DNA of 8,016 bases from a virus (IMGVR_UViG_2585427776_000001), one strand, 5' to 3'. Counted from the first letter of the stretch, positions 1 through 8,016 are shown. Numbers and translations: made by a program. The notes: generated from the sequence alone by a model not told the origin.

Positions 1-1255
1 AACGACCACCACGCGCCATCAATTGAACAACACGCGTGCCCAGGCGAACATCTTTCACATAGCGGGAATCAAAATTCCCCCAGTTGCTGGGTTGTATCTG
101 ACCGTTAACAGCAAATATTACTGAGTTATCTGTATTTCGCTGACTATAGAAATGCCAGCCAGAATCATCGCCAAGCTCTGCAACAGTTGGCCTTGACGAA
201 GCGCCCCATAAATTAAACCCTACGTTCTTCGTGGAGTTGTTGGAGCTGGATAGCGTGAATTTTTTACCATCCCCGGCCTGAATATTTTTAAAAGCAATAG
301 CCACTCCATTCTGAAAGCGGAATACACGCTGACTATTAGCATAAACATCCAGAATACCGTCTCCATTCTGTTTAAATCCGGTGTCATTATCACCAAGAAC
401 AATAGAGCTACCACCTAACGCATTCGTCGAACCAACTCCAAGACTGCCATTAATGACAGCATTAACCAGAATATTTAGTGCATCCCATTTCAGCGTCATC
501 AGGTCTTTTGTTGTGGTGCTTTGTTTGCTTCTCCATTTGAAATATTCATTGCCGTTGTCGCCTGTTTCAAACCACATGAATGAATCAGTGTCACCATCGG
601 CATCATTTTTAAATCCAATCTTCGCCCAGTCAGTATTTCGAATCCAGGCAAGGATTGAGTCGTTTTCAAAAGTAAGTCCACCGGATAAGGTATCGCCTGT
701 CTTTTGAACGGCGTTACCAGCCTTGTTTACCGTTTCCTGCAAACCGAGGTTTTGGATAAACAGCGGCTTATTGGGAATATCTGCTCCGTTCCGCTCTTTT
801 GCCAGACGGGCATTGGCATTATCCATCGCAATTTTCACCGCTTTTGCGGTGGCTGCCAGCGTTTCACTGGGGCTGTCAGTGGCACTGGTTAGCTGAACGA
901 GTCCTTTTTTGTTCAGGCTGGCATCATAGATATCCAGATTTTCACGTGCTGTACGCTGTGCTGATGCCCCGGCAGTTTTAATTTCGCTGAGGTTATTTTT
1001 TATCAGCAGCGCGTTCTTGTTCATGATGGCTTTAATGGACAGTGCAAGCTGGTTTAATTTTGTTTTATCCGGTTGAATACCGGCTTCTTCCAGCGTGTTT
1101 AATAACTCCGCCTGCACAATATTAAACCAGTCCATGCCGGGCCATGTGATAACATTATTCCCGTCACCTTCTGAAAACCAGCGAACGATAGCACTACGCT
1201 GGGCGGATACGGGCGGCATGACGGTTACGCCGCTGTCGTTATCAATATAAAACAT
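1..1255 (-). CDS. S: Tail fibre protein (Mu S / gp49-like), N-terminal ~417 codons; 3' end runs off the window start
   Basis: Manual minus-strand translation from ATG at 1253-1255 (MFYIDNDSGVTVMPPVSAQRSAIVRWFSEGDG...) is open with no stop down to position 2. Contains the tail-fibre repeat region (DIYDASLNKKGLVQLTSATDSPSETLAATAKAV) typical of Mu S / P1 S / P2 H-type fibres. Start overlaps the stop of the upstream gene (TAATG). Absent from the ORF track because it has no in-window stop. Confidence 0.85.
   Translation of the reverse strand, partial: MFYIDNDSGVTVMPPVSAQRSAIVRWFSEGDGNNVITWPGMDWFNIVQAELLNTLEEAGIQPDKTKLNQLALSIKAIMNKNALLIKNNLSEIKTAGASAQRTARENLDIYDASLNKKGLVQLTSATDSPSETLAATAKAVKIAMDNANARLAKERNGADIPNKPLFIQNLGLQETVNKAGNAVQKTGDTLSGGLTFENDSILAWIRNTDWAKIGFKNDADGDTDSFMWFETGDNGNEYFKWRSKQSTTTKDLMTLKWDALNILVNAVINGSLGVGSTNALGGSSIVLGDNDTGFKQNGDGILDVYANSQRVFRFQNGVAIAFKNIQAGDGKKFTLSSSNNSTKNVGFNLWGASSRPTVAELGDDSGWHFYSQRNTDNSVIFAVNGQIQPSNWGNFDSRYVKDVRLGTRVVQLMARGGR
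734..759. other. gix-like site-specific recombination site (Gin/Hin-family invertase crossover site) inside the tail-fibre gene
   Basis: 26-bp imperfect dyad TTCCTGCAAACCGAGGTTTTGGATAA with central GA core and AAACC/GGTTT inner arms. Differs at one position from the gixL sequence as I recall it (TTCCTGTAAACCGAGGTTTTGGATAA). Its position, about 170 codons into the fibre gene, is where the constant/variable boundary is expected. Confidence 0.65.
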
Positions 1256-1797
1256 TAGTTATCTCCGTCATGGTAAACAAATTTATAAATCTGATGTGCG
1301 GGTTTATATTTCTCCAGTAAACATTCCAGCGCACCCGATTCATAAACACGTAACGGCGTCAGAACATTATCCAGCACCGTTGCGTTGCGATAATTTTTAA
1401 TACCGTAAATATTGACCTGCGTAACCCACTGGCCTTCTGTGGAATCCGTCAGCCTGACGGTAAAACCGTACTGCGCAGCCAGCCATTCATAAAAGCGCCG
1501 ACTCAGATTGCCGGTCATACGCATTTTATTCGCGGCAGCCCGCTGGCGTTCGGACAGGGTGCCGTTTTCGCTTGTACAGTCCGGCAACCCCAGAAATGAT
1601 TCCCACTCCCCCAGATACCAGCGGGATGTGGAAGGGAAACGCTCCCGCAGCATTTGCCGCGCATCATCCGCCGCAGTGGCAATCACGTCGCTGATGGCCT
1701 GCGCCAGCGCAGATAATTTGCTGTCGGGGCTTTTATTCCAGGCAAGCCCTGACGGCAGTAATTGCAGAAAGGCCGTCTGATAGGGTGTTACAGCCAT
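1255..1797 (-). CDS. Baseplate wedge protein, Mu gp48 (R)-like / P2 gpI-like
   Basis: 180-aa ORF (MAVTPYQTAFLQLLPSGLAWNK...); position immediately upstream of the tail-fibre gene and downstream of the J-like gene matches Mu/P2 baseplate synteny; stop overlaps the tail-fibre start, and start overlaps the stop of the preceding gene. Confidence 0.8.
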   Translation of the reverse strand: MAVTPYQTAFLQLLPSGLAWNKSPDSKLSALAQAISDVIATAADDARQMLRERFPSTSRWYLGEWESFLGLPDCTSENGTLSERQRAAANKMRMTGNLSRRFYEWLAAQYGFTVRLTDSTEGQWVTQVNIYGIKNYRNATVLDNVLTPLRVYESGALECLLEKYKPAHQIYKFVYHDGDN

Positions 1798-2870
1798 TCA
1801 ATTGTCCCCGGTGTTAACAGTTCCGTATTCTCCGAACGCTGGATCTCTGTCGGGAAACGCACTTCAAAATCATCCAGACCGGTAACACCTGCCACCGCAC
1901 GGATAATACGGGAGGGGGCAAGTGCGCCGCCCGGCGTCACCTCATTAAAAAACATGGTATTAATGGCGTGAGTAATAGCCTGTTTCAGTTCGGCTGTCTT
2001 CGGTGATATATAAATCCGTGGATTTACCGGCTTTGCCTTTGGCGCAAATACCGTGACATATACACCATCAGGCTGTCCGACAATCAGACCAGTGATCGGG
2101 TCAGTATGACCGGCGATATAATCTGCCACACGTTCCACATCTGCCGGTTGTGGAAAAATATTGCTCCGGTTATCCATAACAAACGTCACCCCGACTGTGC
2201 CACCGCCTTTCCATGTCGGAAAACACCAGGCACGGGTAACGCCGCTGACTTCACGCGCCCAGCGAACATAATCAAACTGATTACCGCCGAACGGAGGATA
2301 CTGGACACGATATTCCAGCCGTGACAGCAGCTCCGCTGCACTCTCAATATCAGCCCCACCGGAAAACCCTTTTACAGTGATGGCATCGGAAACAACACAG
2401 GCAACCGGAGTGATCAACGTTAAAAGGGTATTCTCACCGGTATTTCCTGCTTCACCGGCAGCCAGTGCGGTAACGGTAATTTCCGTCGTTCCTGCACGGT
2501 CAATCACAATGGCATCAGCCAGGCTGTAAACCACACCATCAGCACGCTGCCAGCGTGTACCGGCAGGAATGGTGGTCGCTGCCGATGTGGTGACAGTCAG
2601 CGGGCCGCTGGCGGCTGTCGCCTGTTTGCGGCGCACGCCCCAGAACCGGCAGTGCTCCAGCAACTCATCTTCATCTGCTGTCGACGGGATAATCTGCCGT
2701 CCAACCCATGAAATATGCTCGTGACAACCGGCAGCAAGGCCCGCCTGAGCATAAGCAATGGCGCTCAGCGTTTTTTCACGGGCCTGAGGCCAGCTACCCG
2801 GCAGGCGCTGTTCAATATTCTGTTCTGTACGGGCAATCAGCGATGATAATGTCGGTGGTGAATAAGCCAT
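1788..2870 (-). CDS. Baseplate J-like protein, Mu gp47 (W)-like
   Basis: 360-aa ORF (MAYSPPTLSSLIARTEQNIEQRLPG...); size and position typical of the baseplate J family; start ATG 2868-2870 directly abuts the stop of the upstream gene (TAAATG). Confidence 0.85.
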   Translation of the reverse strand: MAYSPPTLSSLIARTEQNIEQRLPGSWPQAREKTLSAIAYAQAGLAAGCHEHISWVGRQIIPSTADEDELLEHCRFWGVRRKQATAASGPLTVTTSAATTIPAGTRWQRADGVVYSLADAIVIDRAGTTEITVTALAAGEAGNTGENTLLTLITPVACVVSDAITVKGFSGGADIESAAELLSRLEYRVQYPPFGGNQFDYVRWAREVSGVTRAWCFPTWKGGGTVGVTFVMDNRSNIFPQPADVERVADYIAGHTDPITGLIVGQPDGVYVTVFAPKAKPVNPRIYISPKTAELKQAITHAINTMFFNEVTPGGALAPSRIIRAVAGVTGLDDFEVRFPTEIQRSENTELLTPGTIEWL

Positions 2871-3308
2871 TTAAACCCCGTTAAATGCTGCTTTAAACTC
2901 ATAAGGAATAACGGAACCATCCGGTAATGTCAGTGCAATGTAGAGGTATAACCAGCCCTGATGTAACTGTTCCGCTCTGACGTTAATCGCACTTACCCGG
3001 CCCGCTGTTTTCAGCCATTCCAGCGCCTCTTCGGCATACCCTCTGGCGCGTTCCAGCGTATCCGGTGTGGCTTTTTCACGTGATAACAGCCACAACCGCG
3101 AACCGATGGGGCGGTCGCGGTAACTGTCCCCCCACCATCCACGGCGATCATCTGAACCATCCGGCAGCGTGTCAGAATCCAGCGCGCGCCGGTCGGTAAA
3201 CAGGGAGATTGTCACATCGGTTGTCAGGCTGTCGTCGGTCAGCATATCAATGCCATCCTGTGCAATATCGCCGCGCCCGTTCGTCCAGATAATGGCTAAA
3301 TCGGTCAT
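2871..3308 (-). CDS. Baseplate protein, Mu gp46 (V)-like / P2 gpW-like (phage GP46 family)
   Basis: 145-aa ORF (MTDLAIIWTNGRGDIAQDGIDMLTDD...); small acidic protein between the spike and J-like genes as in Mu/P2 baseplate operons; ATGA start/stop overlap with the upstream spike gene. Confidence 0.8.
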   Translation of the reverse strand: MTDLAIIWTNGRGDIAQDGIDMLTDDSLTTDVTISLFTDRRALDSDTLPDGSDDRRGWWGDSYRDRPIGSRLWLLSREKATPDTLERARGYAEEALEWLKTAGRVSAINVRAEQLHQGWLYLYIALTLPDGSVIPYEFKAAFNGV

Positions 3309-3898
3309 TGCATTGGCCCCGTGGTTCCGCCGCTGTCGCCACGGTGGATATGCTTATCCGTCGATTTGCCATTGATGATGGCATCCGGGGCAGTAATATT
3401 GCTGTCGAACTGGCTTTTACCTTTAACGCCCAGACCTTTCTGGATCTCAACGTCGCCGGTAAACGTGGTTCTGGGTGTGTCAACGGTCATACTTTCATCA
3501 GCGTAAACCTCGACCGTTTTACAGGTAATGATGCAGCGTCCGTCCTTTGTCAGCCTGATACGATGCCCCTCATGGTGGTAAATGCCTGCATCACCCGGTT
3601 CAAGATTTGTCGGGCGGTAGCGGCGGTCTTCCACCACAACAGCAATCCCCTGATCACGTTGTGCGCCTACACAGGCAATCAGCGCCTCTGCGCCCGGCAG
3701 GGGAACGCTGAAATGTCCGTAATTTTGCAGGCGCTCCACTTCATCGGATTCCTCATCATCCAGCAGACCGACCTGCAGGTTCTGAACTTTTCGCCCGTCG
3801 TTAATCACGTTAACAACGGCACGCGCAAGCATCAGGCGCACACGACGCATCAGCGGTGTCAGCAGGCGGTTCATGGCGGAATCATTTACTCTTTCCAC
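3305..3898 (-). CDS. Baseplate central spike / assembly protein V-like, Mu gp45 (Q)-like
   Basis: 197-aa ORF ([35 protein letters not shown]...), with a C-terminal segment ending KSTDKHIHRGDSGGTTGPMQ; size and synteny fit the gpV/gp45 spike family. Confidence 0.85.
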   Translation of the reverse strand: MERVNDSAMNRLLTPLMRRVRLMLARAVVNVINDGRKVQNLQVGLLDDEESDEVERLQNYGHFSVPLPGAEALIACVGAQRDQGIAVVVEDRRYRPTNLEPGDAGIYHHEGHRIRLTKDGRCIITCKTVEVYADESMTVDTPRTTFTGDVEIQKGLGVKGKSQFDSNITAPDAIINGKSTDKHIHRGDSGGTTGPMQ

Positions 3899-5025
3899 GG
3901 CGGCGTTTTCTCCGGGTGTCTGCGATAATAATCTTCAACCAGCGCATCAATACCGCCGTTACTGTCGCCGCCTTTCCTGTTTTTGCGGTCGCTTTCAACC
4001 GGCACCAGAAAGCCTTCGCGTGGTGCAAGGCTGACGCGGGTTTTCAGCCCGTCCTGGTCATTCAGTATCAGGGTGACTTTGCTGACCAGTAATTCTGTGG
4101 TTTTGATGGCATATTTCGAGGCATCAATAGTGACCAGCAGGTTCGGCATCCAGAGTTGCCCGTCCTTGCGTGTCCATCCGTCAATTTCTGCCTCAAAGGT
4201 GATGGATTTTGCCAGTCTGCGGCGTTGCTCACGCAGGGCGCGGGCCTGTGCATCCTTCGCCGTAATTTTGCTGTCGGCAATGATGATCATCGGTCTGTAA
4301 CGGGTCACATCACTGTCAGTGGCGGTCCCTTTCCGGGAGACGATACTTTTCGCATCAATATCATCACCCTCAGCACCATTTGCGCGGGCATACCCCTTGA
4401 CGGTGTATTCGCTGAACCGGTCGCGGAAGTCTTCCTCAAAATCCAGTGTTAGCAGATTTTCTCCGAGAACCAGCTCATCAGTGGCTGTGCTGGCAGCCCG
4501 GCTGAATACCAGCTCTCCGGCGGCATTGCTGGTCATCAGTACACCGCGTGCGCGGGAGGCACGCACCAGCGCCTCATAAACGGTTTCTGAATGGTCCAGC
4601 GTGAAGCCGGGAAAAACTGCCGAACTTTCCTTATCGGAAAGCTCCCAGCGAACGGTAACGCCATAAGGGGTGCACAGGTCACGCGCAATCTGCTCCAGTG
4701 TGCGGTTTTTCCATTGTCCGCCACTGTAAACGGCAGCACAGTCAATCAGGTCAGCCGTTTTGTCACGTCCGGCGATAGTGATTTTCATACTGTCAGCGGT
4801 CATCTGGCGTCGCCGTGAATCGATATAACCGGTGCAGACAATCTGCCCCTCGATTTCCAGCGTGAACTTCTTCCCCGGTGCCAGCCCGGATAAATCCGTG
4901 CCCGGTGGCACGTTCACCCCCAGCTCAAAATATCCGGCTACGGATTCAATCGAGCGGGTGACAGAGACTGACGTCCAGCCGGTAAAAAGCCTGCCATCCG
5001 TTCGCAGCGTGACGGTATTACTCAT
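3886..5025 (-). CDS. Baseplate hub protein, Mu gp44 (P)-like / P2 gpD-like (late control D family)
   Basis: 379-aa ORF ([37 protein letters not shown]...); position between the N-like and spike genes; overlaps both neighbours by a few codons. Confidence 0.85.
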
Positions 5026-6088
5026 TAATCACCTCAATACTGACACCACCGGGAACAAACAACGGGTTGCTGATACCGTTCCTGCGGGCCAGCCGTTGCC
5101 AGTTCCGGCTGTTTCCTGTGTAACGGTACAGAGCCACCATTGCAGGCATCGTCTCCGGCAGGCGGTGCGTTTCACTGCCCGCCAGTTGCAGCCCGCGTTT
5201 TTCCAGGTCGGCAACAACCAGCAGACGCAGTTGCGTAAGCTGAACGCTGTCTGTCGAAAAGCCCTGCTCAGATGCCGTCAGAATGACGGTATCCAGCGCT
5301 GCCCCCAGCATGGCGGCTGTTTTTCCGATATCGGACACACTTTCAAATACCGGGGGCGTGGCTGTACCACTGTCTGAAAAGGATACCTGTGAAAAGCCGC
5401 CGTCCGGGGTTATGGCAGTTAACTGTAACTGTCCCTGTGTGACGGTAGCGGATGTGCTGCTGGCCCCGCTGGCTGTGCCGGTTGTGGTGGACGGGGCATC
5501 CAGTACAGGTGCACGGGCGGCATTATCCATCCGGCGACTGAAATCCAGTGCCGCAGTCAGTGCCTGGCTTGCTGCCTCCGCCCGGTATGTCTGTGCTGCT
5601 GCCAGCATGACGTAGTTCAGTGTGGCAATATTTTTTTCTGCAACCGGACTGTTGTACGAGGTTGTGATTGTCCCCTGTCTGCCTGCGGTGGCGGCATGGC
5701 GACGTTCGAATCGCTGCGCCAGACGGTTCCATGTGGAAAATGCTGTCCGGGTATCGCATAACGATGAAACGCCGGACAGCGCCCCCATCAGCGAGGAGGC
5801 CAGCATGGCAGGCTGGTTAATCAGGCTGGTCACAGAGCCTTTCATCGCAGAAAGCGATCCCATCAGACCGCTGACAGTCTGCGTAACCCCCAGATTGTCC
5901 ACCGCATCACTGATATCATCGATGACACCGGTTACAGCTTCCATCACGGCGGTTGCCGCCGCAGTGCCATCTTTTACGGTCTGCCAGACAGAGGACAGCG
6001 TATCTCCCAGAGAACCGGTTACAGCAACGGCCTGTGCCGGTACGGCTGCACTGGTGTCTGTCTCTGCGTCCGGGGCAGTATCCTGCAA
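5018..6088 (-). pseudogene. DNA circularization protein N (Mu gp43)-like, apparently 5'-truncated remnant
   Basis: 356 codons in frame with the downstream baseplate genes (ends ...[21 protein letters not shown]). The frame stays open upstream to 6118 but has no ATG/GTG start with a Shine-Dalgarno (the track's start is a TTG), and the first ATG is about 49 codons in. The upstream end abuts the transposase remnant in another frame. Truncation is inferred from my recollection that Mu N is considerably longer; this needs alignment to confirm. Confidence 0.6.
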
Positions 6089-6095
6089 CGACGGA

Positions 6096-6218
6096 TATCT
6101 GTCGAAACACCCACTGTTCTAACCTTGCTTTACGAGAGATCGCGCTAGAGGATTTTGGAAGACCTATCAGCCCTTCTAATTTCTTTGCAGAAAACCAATC
6201 ATTACATTGTGGTTGCAT
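6096..6218 (-). pseudogene. A: Transposase A N-terminal fragment (about 40 codons of the operator/enhancer-binding winged-helix domain), fused out of frame to the N remnant
   Basis: ATG at 6216-6218, 2 nt after the ner stop. [41 protein letters not shown] is clearly paralogous to the repressor N-terminus in this same window ([35 protein letters not shown]), as expected for the Mu/D108 A and c pair. Similarity stops after about codon 41 and the reading frame then runs through the N remnant in a different frame (track ORF 5916..6224). Confidence 0.65.
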
Positions 6219-6220
6219 TT

Positions 6221-6439
6221 TCAATACCTCGAAGGCCAGATGTCTCGTGGCTCAACTCCCAATGCATCGGCAATGATTCTTTCCCCCCGAGGGTAAGGTT
6301 TATCCAAGGCATTTTTTACCGTAGAGATAGAGAGACCGTTCTCACGACCAAGAGCTGCTAGGCTTTTTCCTCTTTTGCGCAGATCAGCAACAATGTCGTA
6401 TCTACTTTTGTCTTCACATTTACTTTTCTTTATCGCCAT
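6221..6439 (-). CDS. ner: Ner-family DNA-binding transcriptional regulator (Mu Ner / Nlp-like)
   Basis: 72 aa from ATG 6437-6439 ([72 protein letters not shown]), with GAGGA 9 nt upstream. The C-terminal WPSRY and overall pattern match the Ner/Nlp family; divergent from the repressor gene as in Mu. The track ORF starts 3 codons earlier at a TTG. Confidence 0.85.
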
Positions 6440-6448
6440 AAAATGCAA

Positions 6449-6639
6449 TCCTCACAAGCTACGCCATCAGCTACGCCGCAAGGTAGCTGATAAGGTATGC
6501 AGCAATGCTAGTGTGAATACATTGTCAATGCAATAGTGTATTCAAATGTTTTGTTTGAAATTCATCTATCTCGATGATTTTAAAGTGAATATATTTTTCA
6601 TTTCTTTGAATACATCGTGTATTTAAAGCGAGGTTTGTG
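6449..6639. promoter_or_regulatory. Divergent early-promoter/operator region between ner and c (Pe/Pc with operator repeats)
   Basis: AT-rich 190-bp intergenic region with repeated TGAATAYA motifs: TGAATACA 6514-6521 paired with inverted TGTATTCA 6537-6544; TGAATACA 6607-6614 paired with inverted TGTATTTA 6618-6625; TGAATATA 6586-6593. A TTGACA hexamer on the minus strand (plus 6523-6528) lies between the first pair. Exact promoter elements and transcription start sites are not determined. Confidence 0.5.
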
Positions 6640-7155
6640 ATGACACAAGAATGGTTTTCAGCTAAAGAGCTACAAGGGGTTGCTGGTCTTCCGTCTTCAG
6701 CAAGTAGTATTAGCCGCAAAGCAACTAATGAGGGATGGAAAAAGAGACAGATCAAAGGAGTAAAGGGTGTTGCTTATGAATACCATATCAGCTCATTACC
6801 TGATGCCACTCAGGCAGAATTAGGAGGGGCGCAGTTATTAGATAACGATAAGTCAGCTTATAAGTTAGCTTCTGTGTTAATGGCTTTGGTTGCAGAGTTA
6901 GAACCAGAGGAAATCCAGAGGGCATTAAAGCTACTTAGTAAAGGTGGACTTAGTGCACTAATGCCAAGTATCTTTGATCAGACTCAAATCCAATCTCTGC
7001 ACGGCGTATCGCGTGAGTGCATACAACTCGCCCAAATGCTAGAAACTTTACCAGCAGAAGAGCGCAAAGAGATTTTGTCAGAGCATGGTATTCATGAACA
7101 GGAAAGTCTTGTAGCTCCTTCGCAAGAACCACAAGATGTAAAAAAAGCCGTATAA
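6640..7155 (+). CDS. c: Prophage repressor c (Mu Repc-family; immunity specificity appears non-Mu, possibly D108-type)
   Basis: 171 aa from ATG 6640 (GAGG 7 nt upstream; track ORF starts one codon earlier at GTG 6637). N-terminal winged-helix domain paralogous to the A remnant; C-terminus (...[29 protein letters not shown]) resembles the Mu repressor C-terminal tail as I recall it; transcribed toward the Mu left end as in Mu. Confidence 0.85.
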
Positions 7156-7321: not shown

Positions 7322-7493
7322 TTTTCGTATTTTCAATGAAACAAAAGCAATTTTTTACTATCTTTCGCGTTTCATTGATTAACGACTAAAATTTGCGCTA
7401 CAGGCTTGCAAGCCCCACCAAATCTAATCCCATCAGATCCCGAATAATCCAATGTCCTCCCGGTTTTTTTCGTACTTCAAGTGAATCAATACA
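7322..7493. repeat. Mu-type left end (attL) with three MuA-binding-like repeats (L3-like 7322-7340, L2-like 7362-7379, L1-like 7467-7485) and terminal ...CA at 7492-7493
   Basis: On the bottom strand the three copies align as TTCACTTGAAGTACGAAAA (L1), ATCAATGAAACGCGAAAG (L2) and TTCATTGAAAATACGAAAA (L3). Their spacing from the terminus (about 9-27, 115-132 and 154-172 bp) matches the L1/L2/L3 arrangement known for Mu. Confidence 0.8.
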
Positions 7494-7762
7494 CCGACAA
7501 TAAGCTTTATACCGGGATCACCACGGATGTCGAACGCCGCTATCAGCAGCACCAAAGCGGCAAAGGGGCGAAAGCACTGCGCGGGAAAGGAGAACTAACG
7601 CTGGTGTTTTCCGCGCCAGTGGGCGATCGTTCGCTGGCGTTACGGGCGGAATATCGCGTTAAGCAACTGACCAAACGGCAAAAAGAGCGTCTGGTAGCGG
7701 AAGGCGCAGGGTTTGCAGAGCTGTTAAGCAGTCTGCAAACCCCGGAGATTAAAAGCGATTGA
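7494..7762 (+). pseudogene. yhbQ: yhbQ (GIY-YIG nuclease-superfamily protein, UPF0213), 5'-truncated by the prophage insertion
   Basis: Host-derived reading frame ...[88 protein letters not shown] matches E. coli YhbQ as I recall it from about residue 12 onward. The first ~11 codons are replaced by Mu-end sequence (track ORF 7481..7762 starts at a GTG inside the Mu end). Confidence 0.75.
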
Positions 7763-8016
7763 AATGCTCGTGATACTCAACCAGGCCGGTAACGCCATTC
7801 AGCGCGTCATCCGCTAAACGATGTACCTGGAAGGCGCTTTCAGTGCCCGGCCAGCGGCAACGCAGATCGTGATGCGCCGCCAGTTCAAAGCCGAAACGAC
7901 TGTACAGCGCCGGATCGCCCAGCGTCACCACTGCGGCATAGCCGAACTCATTAAGCGAATCGAGTCCTTCATAGACCAGTTGGCGTGCCAGCCCCTGTCC
8001 ACGGTATTTTTCATCA
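7749..8016 (-). CDS. yhbS: yhbS, GNAT-family N-acetyltransferase, C-terminal part (N-terminus beyond window end)
   Basis: Minus-strand frame open from the window end ([88 protein letters not shown], stop 7749-7751); convergent with yhbQ and overlapping its 3' end, as in the E. coli yhbQ-yhbS locus. Confidence 0.8.

Follow-up and report, generated by a model that had tools for sequence, protein, structure and literature searches.

A defective Mu-type prophage of Escherichia coli joins its early operon to the baseplate and tail-fiber genes and retains the late promoter P_P

How could baseplate and tail-fiber genes be expressed in a prophage remnant that lacks head and sheath genes and the activator of its own late operon? 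This question is raised by IMGVR_UViG_2585427776_000001, a viral DNA stretch of 8,016 nucleotides (hereafter the window), in which the early region of a Mu-type prophage lies upstream of, and on the same strand as, the genes for the baseplate and the tail fiber S. The original prediction made for this stretch held that a deletion had removed both the late activator C and the native late promoters, so that on derepression the early promoter upstream of ner could be the only promoter driving the block. The window is an entire draft contig, JOQP01000044.1 (GCA_000714145.1), base for base and in reverse orientation. Our analysis makes it highly probable that the window holds a defective Mu-type (Muvirus) E. 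coli prophage which, through one deletion of approximately 25 kb, was reduced to its immunity module and a late operon that still has its promoter P_P, and that this is most likely a recent, selectively neutral decay product.

The deletion junction lies at 6096..6097, where alignments to intact Mu-type prophages and phages reach 6097 on one side and restart at 6096 on the other, with a 2-bp TA microhomology. In intact relatives the two junction points are separated by 25,141 bp (2014C-3075) or about 25,700 bp (JNEC-KY180), and in Mu coordinates the missing interval is ~1452-26615, from codon 41 of the transposase gene A to codon ~136 of N. Deleted with it are B, kil, gam, mor, C (Mu 9963-10385), the lysis genes (the lysozyme and spanin genes fall in this interval), all head genes, and the genes for the sheath (L), the tube (M) and the tape measure. 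A single event of illegitimate recombination between these two points would have removed the transposition, killing, lysis, head, sheath, tube and late activation functions. In agreement with the description of the element as head-less and sheath-less, no C, mor, lysis, head, sheath, tube or tape-measure gene is found between the left end and S, on a window that is the whole of its 8-kb contig.

What remains of A is the start of a fusion open reading frame (ORF), A' (5916..6218, minus strand), of 100 codons, of which 41 are transposase codons, by comparison with the 666-aa A of the MIN10 prophage, and 59 are out-of-frame codons read from N DNA before a stop; this ORF has no exact-protein match on record. 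The N remnant (5018..6097, minus strand) has 360 codons and no start of its own, and aligns with residues ~136-495 of the 495-aa DNA-circularization/baseplate protein N of Esc31; an exact-protein look-up with its ORF led to contig JOQP01000044.1. Because what is left of A and of N is read in different frames, no A-N fusion protein can extend past the 100-codon ORF ending at 5916. With A cut down to 41 codons and B missing, the window has neither an intact DDE transposase A nor the ATPase B, which makes the element a defective derivative of Muvirus and not a functional member.

That the window is only a short draft contig, and that the junction occurs in 0 of 5426 complete E. coli genomes, could be taken as a sign that the A'/'N join is a chimera produced during assembly. 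However, the same junction is carried by four contigs that represent about nine samples. Three are from NCBI assemblies (GCA_000714145.1, GCA_000714225.1 and GCA_000714105.1) and one was assembled independently from raw reads by Logan; two of these contigs are ~130 kb long, and all four match the window except for one base in one contig. A literature search on the assembly accessions (JOQP, JOQT, JOQN) returned nothing. Recurrence of an identical junction in independent assemblies rules out misassembly, and the 2 bp of shared sequence at the join are too little for a repeat-driven misassembly, which leaves such an artifact with a negligible probability. A sigma-70-like hexamer pair that spans the junction (TCGACA-17-GATACT, 6105-6077, minus strand) was considered as a promoter created by the fusion and was rejected, as pairs of this kind are no commoner than chance predicts (8.2 expected, 6 found). 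The junction RNA, when folded, showed no unusual structure (z = 0.43), and an Rfam search gave no matches.

The fate of the native late promoter is central to the question. Mu has four C-dependent late promoters, of which P_P serves the genes P through U and lies inside N (AF083977 27287-27353). This position maps to window 5360-5426, within an exact 87-nt match (5353..5439, minus strand) to the P-promoter fragment of PMC4461284, with the C-binding region around CCATAACCCC at 5415-5406 and the -10 element TATCCT at 5385-5380; the region around the annotated promoter is 120/121 identical to Mu. Since P_P sits in N downstream of the deletion endpoint, the promoter was retained, and of the promoter/activator pair C alone was lost. 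The element thus has P_P and its C-binding site upstream of P and no C gene, and the exactness of the match implies that the baseplate and fiber block is still the native late operon, without its activator. The original prediction was therefore right that C lies inside the deleted interval, and in error about the native late promoters, as the one that serves P through S outlived the deletion. Its regulation follows known Mu biology, in which late genes need C and P_P lies in N; in vitro, P_P without C gives no productive transcription (Chakraborty et al. 2015, PMC4461284).

Within the N remnant, GGAG precedes an ATG at 5140 from which the last 40 N codons can be read in frame (5140-5018, minus strand), up to the stop that overlaps the start of P. 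This start codon could couple translation into P for transcripts begun at P_P, in Mu as well as in the window.

Can transcripts from the early promoter also reach P to S? The early operon (c, operators, ner and A') shares its strand with P and now lies ~1.4 kb upstream of it. Its promoter falls outside positions 1 to 6439, the range given for the original prediction, and belongs to the control region at 6440-6639. As this region shows no difference from its counterpart in the intact MIN10 prophage, the early promoter that such phages use is present in the window. Consensus promoter scans of 6440-6639 were unable to place it, and our best guess is the candidate pair TTGCAT-17-TAGCAT at 6533-6505.

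The view that no obvious terminator lies between the genes stands: terminator-like hairpins are not more frequent than chance (9 found versus 8.1 +/- 3.2 in shuffled sequence), and the minus-strand candidates are weak and all within coding sequence. A hairpin at 4644-4622 in P (-20 kcal/mol) was tried as a terminator and rejected, because its T-run is apart from the stem and because it is conserved in the Mu operon, whose own late transcript has to cross it. A different kind of obstacle follows the A' stop. From 5916 to 5140 (~775 nt) no start preceded by a Shine-Dalgarno sequence is found in any frame, and over 5820-5340 C exceeds G in the RNA (C/G ratio, 1.1-1.55). Long untranslated C-rich RNA is the classical substrate of Rho-dependent polarity. 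Rho polarity is thus likely after the A' stop, and only a fraction of early transcripts would be expected to arrive at P (5025). Read-through from the early promoter into P to S is accordingly possible on the evidence of the sequence, with an output that is likely to be weak.

As C is deleted and P_P is unproductive without C in vitro, this read-through is the only evident route into P to S as long as no other Mu-type phage is present. To that extent the proposal that the early promoter is the sole driver of the block holds, since it names the only evident route in cis; against it stand the intact P_P, the intact c and Ner, and the untranslated C-rich stretch that would limit read-through. In a resting lysogen, c would shut the early promoter and P_P would be silent with C missing, so that the block would not be expressed. 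Upon loss of repression, early transcripts would enter the N remnant and might reach P, with Ner damping and Rho termination keeping the output low. During infection by a heteroimmune Mu-type phage, the C protein of the incoming phage would fire the resident P_P in trans. We infer that C from such a superinfecting relative is a more plausible route of expression than the early promoter, and this would apply equally to any supply of fibers or baseplate parts to that relative, as had been suggested.

How often such remnants arise can be judged from the complete E. coli genomes. The Mu-type baseplate block is present in 45 of them (52 places) and the block of sheath, tube and tape-measure genes in 44 (51 places); 51 of the 52 baseplate blocks have a matching sheath/tube block, and the copy numbers per genome agree. 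Sheath-less Mu-type remnants are thus rare, but so are Mu-type prophages themselves. The only complete genome with a baseplate and no sheath is that of E. coli E24377A, which carries a 12.6-kb Mu-type element in ssuA (NC_009801.1 ~1062188-1074752; 3854-16419 of our locus L010) with both ends and a 5-bp TCGGC target duplication. Its gene order is c, ner, full-length A, B' (102 codons), 'N (the last 14 codons), P, gp45-48, S, U, G segment, gin, com and a mom-like gene, which is probably a guide to the content of the window element to the right of the contig end. The deletion in E24377A (Mu ~3663-27642, ~24 kb) is an event separate from that of the window and has taken P_P with it; the B'::'N join preserves the reading frame as far as the N stop, which overlaps the start of P. 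Because P_P is deleted there, the baseplate genes of E24377A are left with read-through from upstream alone, and expression from the early promoter alone fits E24377A more cleanly than it fits the window.

Other searches for remnants gave little. A look-up of gp46 contexts returned ten intact prophages only, and a scan of species-representative genomes with P found two loci that are uninformative on remnants. As a separate observation, a metagenome scaffold, ENA ERZ28604099 scaffold_1 (our locus L014, 10438-15522), has an otherwise intact Mu-type prophage in which a stretch reaching from inside gp47 across S and U is inverted relative to gp46; this stretch exceeds the usual G segment in size.

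Both sheath-less Mu-type remnants found in E. coli join the early operon to P, and two of two is suggestive. Mu does not excise. Lysogens can therefore shed the lethal early functions by deletion while keeping immunity, and any such deletion brings the early operon up against the genes that happen to follow it. The left endpoints, in A in the window and in B in E24377A, fit selection against lethal early functions rather than for a particular fusion, and the recurrence of the join fits decay by loss of those functions. Our search could detect only remnants that had kept the baseplate and lost the sheath, which biases any apparent convergence.

It could instead be supposed that the fusion itself was selected, as a domesticated module in which early- or C-driven baseplate and fiber proteins help the host or related phages, through fiber donation or as receptor-binding decoys. 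Every retained structural ORF is full length, S departs from Mu and D108 in its distal part (window 1-480), and E24377A carries an independent fusion of the early operon to P in which the in-frame B'::'N join keeps the stop/start overlap with P. Full-length ORFs are, however, uninformative on selection, because the carriers of the window junction are identical in sequence and form a narrow clone. Each of the two remnants is confined to one lineage, with 0 and 1 occurrences in the 5426 complete genomes, the search bias just described applies to the convergence argument, and the window fusion is out of frame and followed by a long untranslated gap. We know of no activity of a baseplate without tube or sheath, which also counts against this explanation, and we regard domestication as very unlikely. 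The retained block had been called unusual, and it is indeed rare, being private to a few sequence-identical assemblies, yet its rarity is no argument for retention by selection.

Another explanation would make the element a natural mini-Mu of ~11-12 kb, with both ends and the operator/enhancer region, which a helper that gives A, B and C would move, amplify and package. The window has an intact operator region and a left end that is 129/130 identical to Mu, the counterpart in E24377A has both ends and the TCGGC duplication, and laboratory elements consisting of ends and enhancer are mobilized in trans (PMC3145075). However, the contig ends in S, so the right end is not seen; with the resident repressor in place a homoimmune helper would be blocked, and a heteroimmune A might fail to use the window enhancer; moreover, yhbQ is the one insertion site in all carriers, so there is no sign of movement. 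We consider a mobile mini-Mu very unlikely as well. The two ideas can be combined, with fusions of the early operon to P as a recurrent, selected end-state, and with the element as a helper-dependent satellite of ~12 kb (immunity, baseplate and fiber genes, G segment and mom), mini-Mu-like, that donates fibers or baseplate parts to heteroimmune Mu-type phages via P_P and C in trans or via the early promoter; to this combination we likewise give little credence.

Neutral decay through one deletion therefore remains our preferred explanation, and several points weigh against it. The early promoter of the PhiR68_1/MIN10 immunity type is not recognizable by consensus. Repression, Ner feedback, Rho polarity and activation in trans are predictions, and the last of these may be weaker on a non-replicating remnant than we have assumed, given that the beta sliding clamp, too, is required when C drives transcription (PMC12867686). 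The 3' end of S, U, the G segment, gin, com, mom and the right end all lie beyond the window, and elsewhere in the genome a second Mu-type prophage could supply C. Finally, six intact structural ORFs, and two independent remnants with the early operon joined to P, could also have been produced by selection for the module.

In the retained block, the ORFs of P and gp45 to gp48 are intact, with identities assigned by Pfam and junctions read directly from the sequence. All of these genes are on the minus strand: P, or gp44, the baseplate hub (3886..5025; 379 aa, the same length as in Mu and Esc31; GpP-like_1st, Gp44-like_2nd, GpP_4th); gp45, the baseplate spike (3305..3898; 197 aa; Phage_Mu_Gp45); and the three baseplate wedge proteins gp46 (2871..3308; 145 aa; GP46), the exact protein of which is widespread in intact prophages, gp47 (1788..2870; 360 aa; Baseplate_J) and gp48 (1255..1797; 180 aa; Phage_Mu_Gp48). 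They are followed by the first 418 codons of S (1..1255, minus strand; Phage_fiber_2, Gp34_trimer), which are open at the contig end and collinear with the 460-aa S of Esc31. The N stop and the P start overlap by 8 nt (ATGAGTAA), P and gp45 by 13 nt, and gp47 and gp48 by 10 nt; gp45 and gp46 share ATGA, gp46 and gp47 abut as TAAATG, and gp48 and S share TAATG. The sequence and the Pfam assignments thus bear out the tightly packed arrangement of ner, the A fragment, the N remnant, gp44-gp48 and S on one strand that had been described.

With these Mu-type baseplate genes, at 98-99% identity to Mu and D108, the element has an S gene that enters a gix-bounded G segment. The left boundary of this invertible segment lies inside S at 734..759 (minus strand), where the sequence taken as gix matches at 25/26 positions with no match expected by chance; the boundary of G annotated in Mu maps to window ~747, consistent with this position. 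Sister contigs end at window 732 (L004 and L005, two bases past gix) or at 995. Contig ends near gix fit the inverted repeat of a G segment or the presence of both G orientations in the culture, which hints at a G segment, and perhaps an active gin, in the genome. The distal part of S, at 1-480, has no match to Mu or D108 and matches Yersinia phage vB_YpM_Tongde and E. coli Esc31, the identity to which is 97.8-98.5% over the whole 1-6097 match. This pattern illustrates the exchange of fiber tips among Mu-type phages.

The immunity and early region has a different set of closest relatives. From the junction (6098) to the left end (7494) it is 97.7% identical to the isolated phage PhiR68_1, and its layout, with c divergent from ner and A, is that of Muvirus and is shared by PhiR68_1 and the MIN10 prophage. 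The repressor gene c (6640..7155, plus strand; 171 aa, full length; HTH_Tnp_Mu_1) is of the PhiR68_1/MIN10 immunity type; its protein differs from that of the intact MIN10 prophage by a single substitution (S155 versus G), and its DNA is 97.7% identical to that of PhiR68_1. The gene ner (6221..6439, minus strand; 72 aa, intact; HTH_35) encodes a protein identical to MIN10 Ner, and its TGA stop is separated by 2 nt (TGA-AA-ATG) from the ATG of A' at 6218. Between them, the intergenic control region (6440..6639) contains the operators together with two divergent promoters, the early one (Pe) and that of the repressor. It carries repeated TGAATACA/TGTATTCA motifs and, just upstream of ner, a perfect 9-bp inverted repeat (ATCAGCTAC-N8-GTAGCTGAT, 6466-6491), which by analogy with what is generally known of Mu and D108 are likely candidates for the repressor and Ner operators. 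The immunity region at 6440-7155 is neither Mu- nor D108-type and is covered in 15 of the 5426 complete E. coli genomes.

The left end of the element (attL; 7364..7493, minus strand), comprising the terminal 5'-TG at 7493 and the A-binding region, is identical at 129/130 positions to Mu bases 1-130, as expected of a Muvirus. Beyond it, the window continues into E. coli DNA (7494..8016) with the 3' parts of yhbQ (plus strand, to 7762) and yhbS (minus strand, from 7749), at 100% identity to K-12 from ~7492-7494 on. Thus yhbQ is the insertion site of the prophage, and an identical host flank runs 8 kb further in the sister contigs (L004-L006). The first codons of yhbQ, annotated in RefSeq as a GIY-YIG 'DNA damage response exodeoxyribonuclease', are not on the contig, and a GTG derived from the Mu end opens a 93-codon ORF into the part of yhbQ that remains (window 7494-7762).

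Taken as it stands, the remnant is an ordinary prophage deletion remnant and not a rewired system, and is of little significance. If it is true that it supplies fibers to infecting relatives, it would be a small case of a prophage fossil shaping phage host range.

Comparison with known systems places the element beside the Mu late operon P-U (AF083977; PMC4461284), which agrees with it in gene content, gene order and overlaps, is 98.1% identical to it at the DNA level over window 480-6097 and has an identical P_P fragment. The window differs from it in lacking C and, one step earlier in the regulatory cascade, mor, in having ner-A' as the upstream neighbor in place of the tape-measure gene and a full-length N, and in its distal S. 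Laboratory mini-Mu and Mud elements (PMC3145075) are helper-dependent products of internal deletion in which the ends and the immunity/enhancer region have been retained; the window element arose naturally, with the left end and the operator region present and the contig ending short of any right end. With R-type tailocins the window shares a prophage-derived, head-less set of contractile-tail baseplate and fiber genes, but these are accompanied neither by sheath and tube genes beside the baseplate nor by a dedicated lysis cassette, and a block without sheath, tube, tape-measure and lysis genes can form no functional particle, so that it is not a tailocin. The classical deleted Mu prophages of deletion-mapping lysogens, used for complementation and marker rescue, resemble the window element in having an internal deletion. 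PhiR68_1 (PV340575) and the MIN10 prophage (NZ_CP069677) have the same c, operators, ner and start of A (97.7% and 99.9% identity, respectively), but are complete at ~37 kb, with a 666-aa A, B, mor, C and the lysis, head and tail genes. The remnant in E24377A likewise runs from c and ner to P, gp45-48 and S on one strand, without head, sheath or tube genes, and is 98.9% identical over window 705-5070; it differs from the window in its full-length A, a left endpoint in B, the in-frame join, the deletion of P_P and the visibility of both ends, and its c is of another immunity type, annotated as MerR-family and only weakly matching that of the window. The window, with P_P, and E24377A, without it, form a natural pair in which read-through, Rho polarity and activation by C in trans can be compared.

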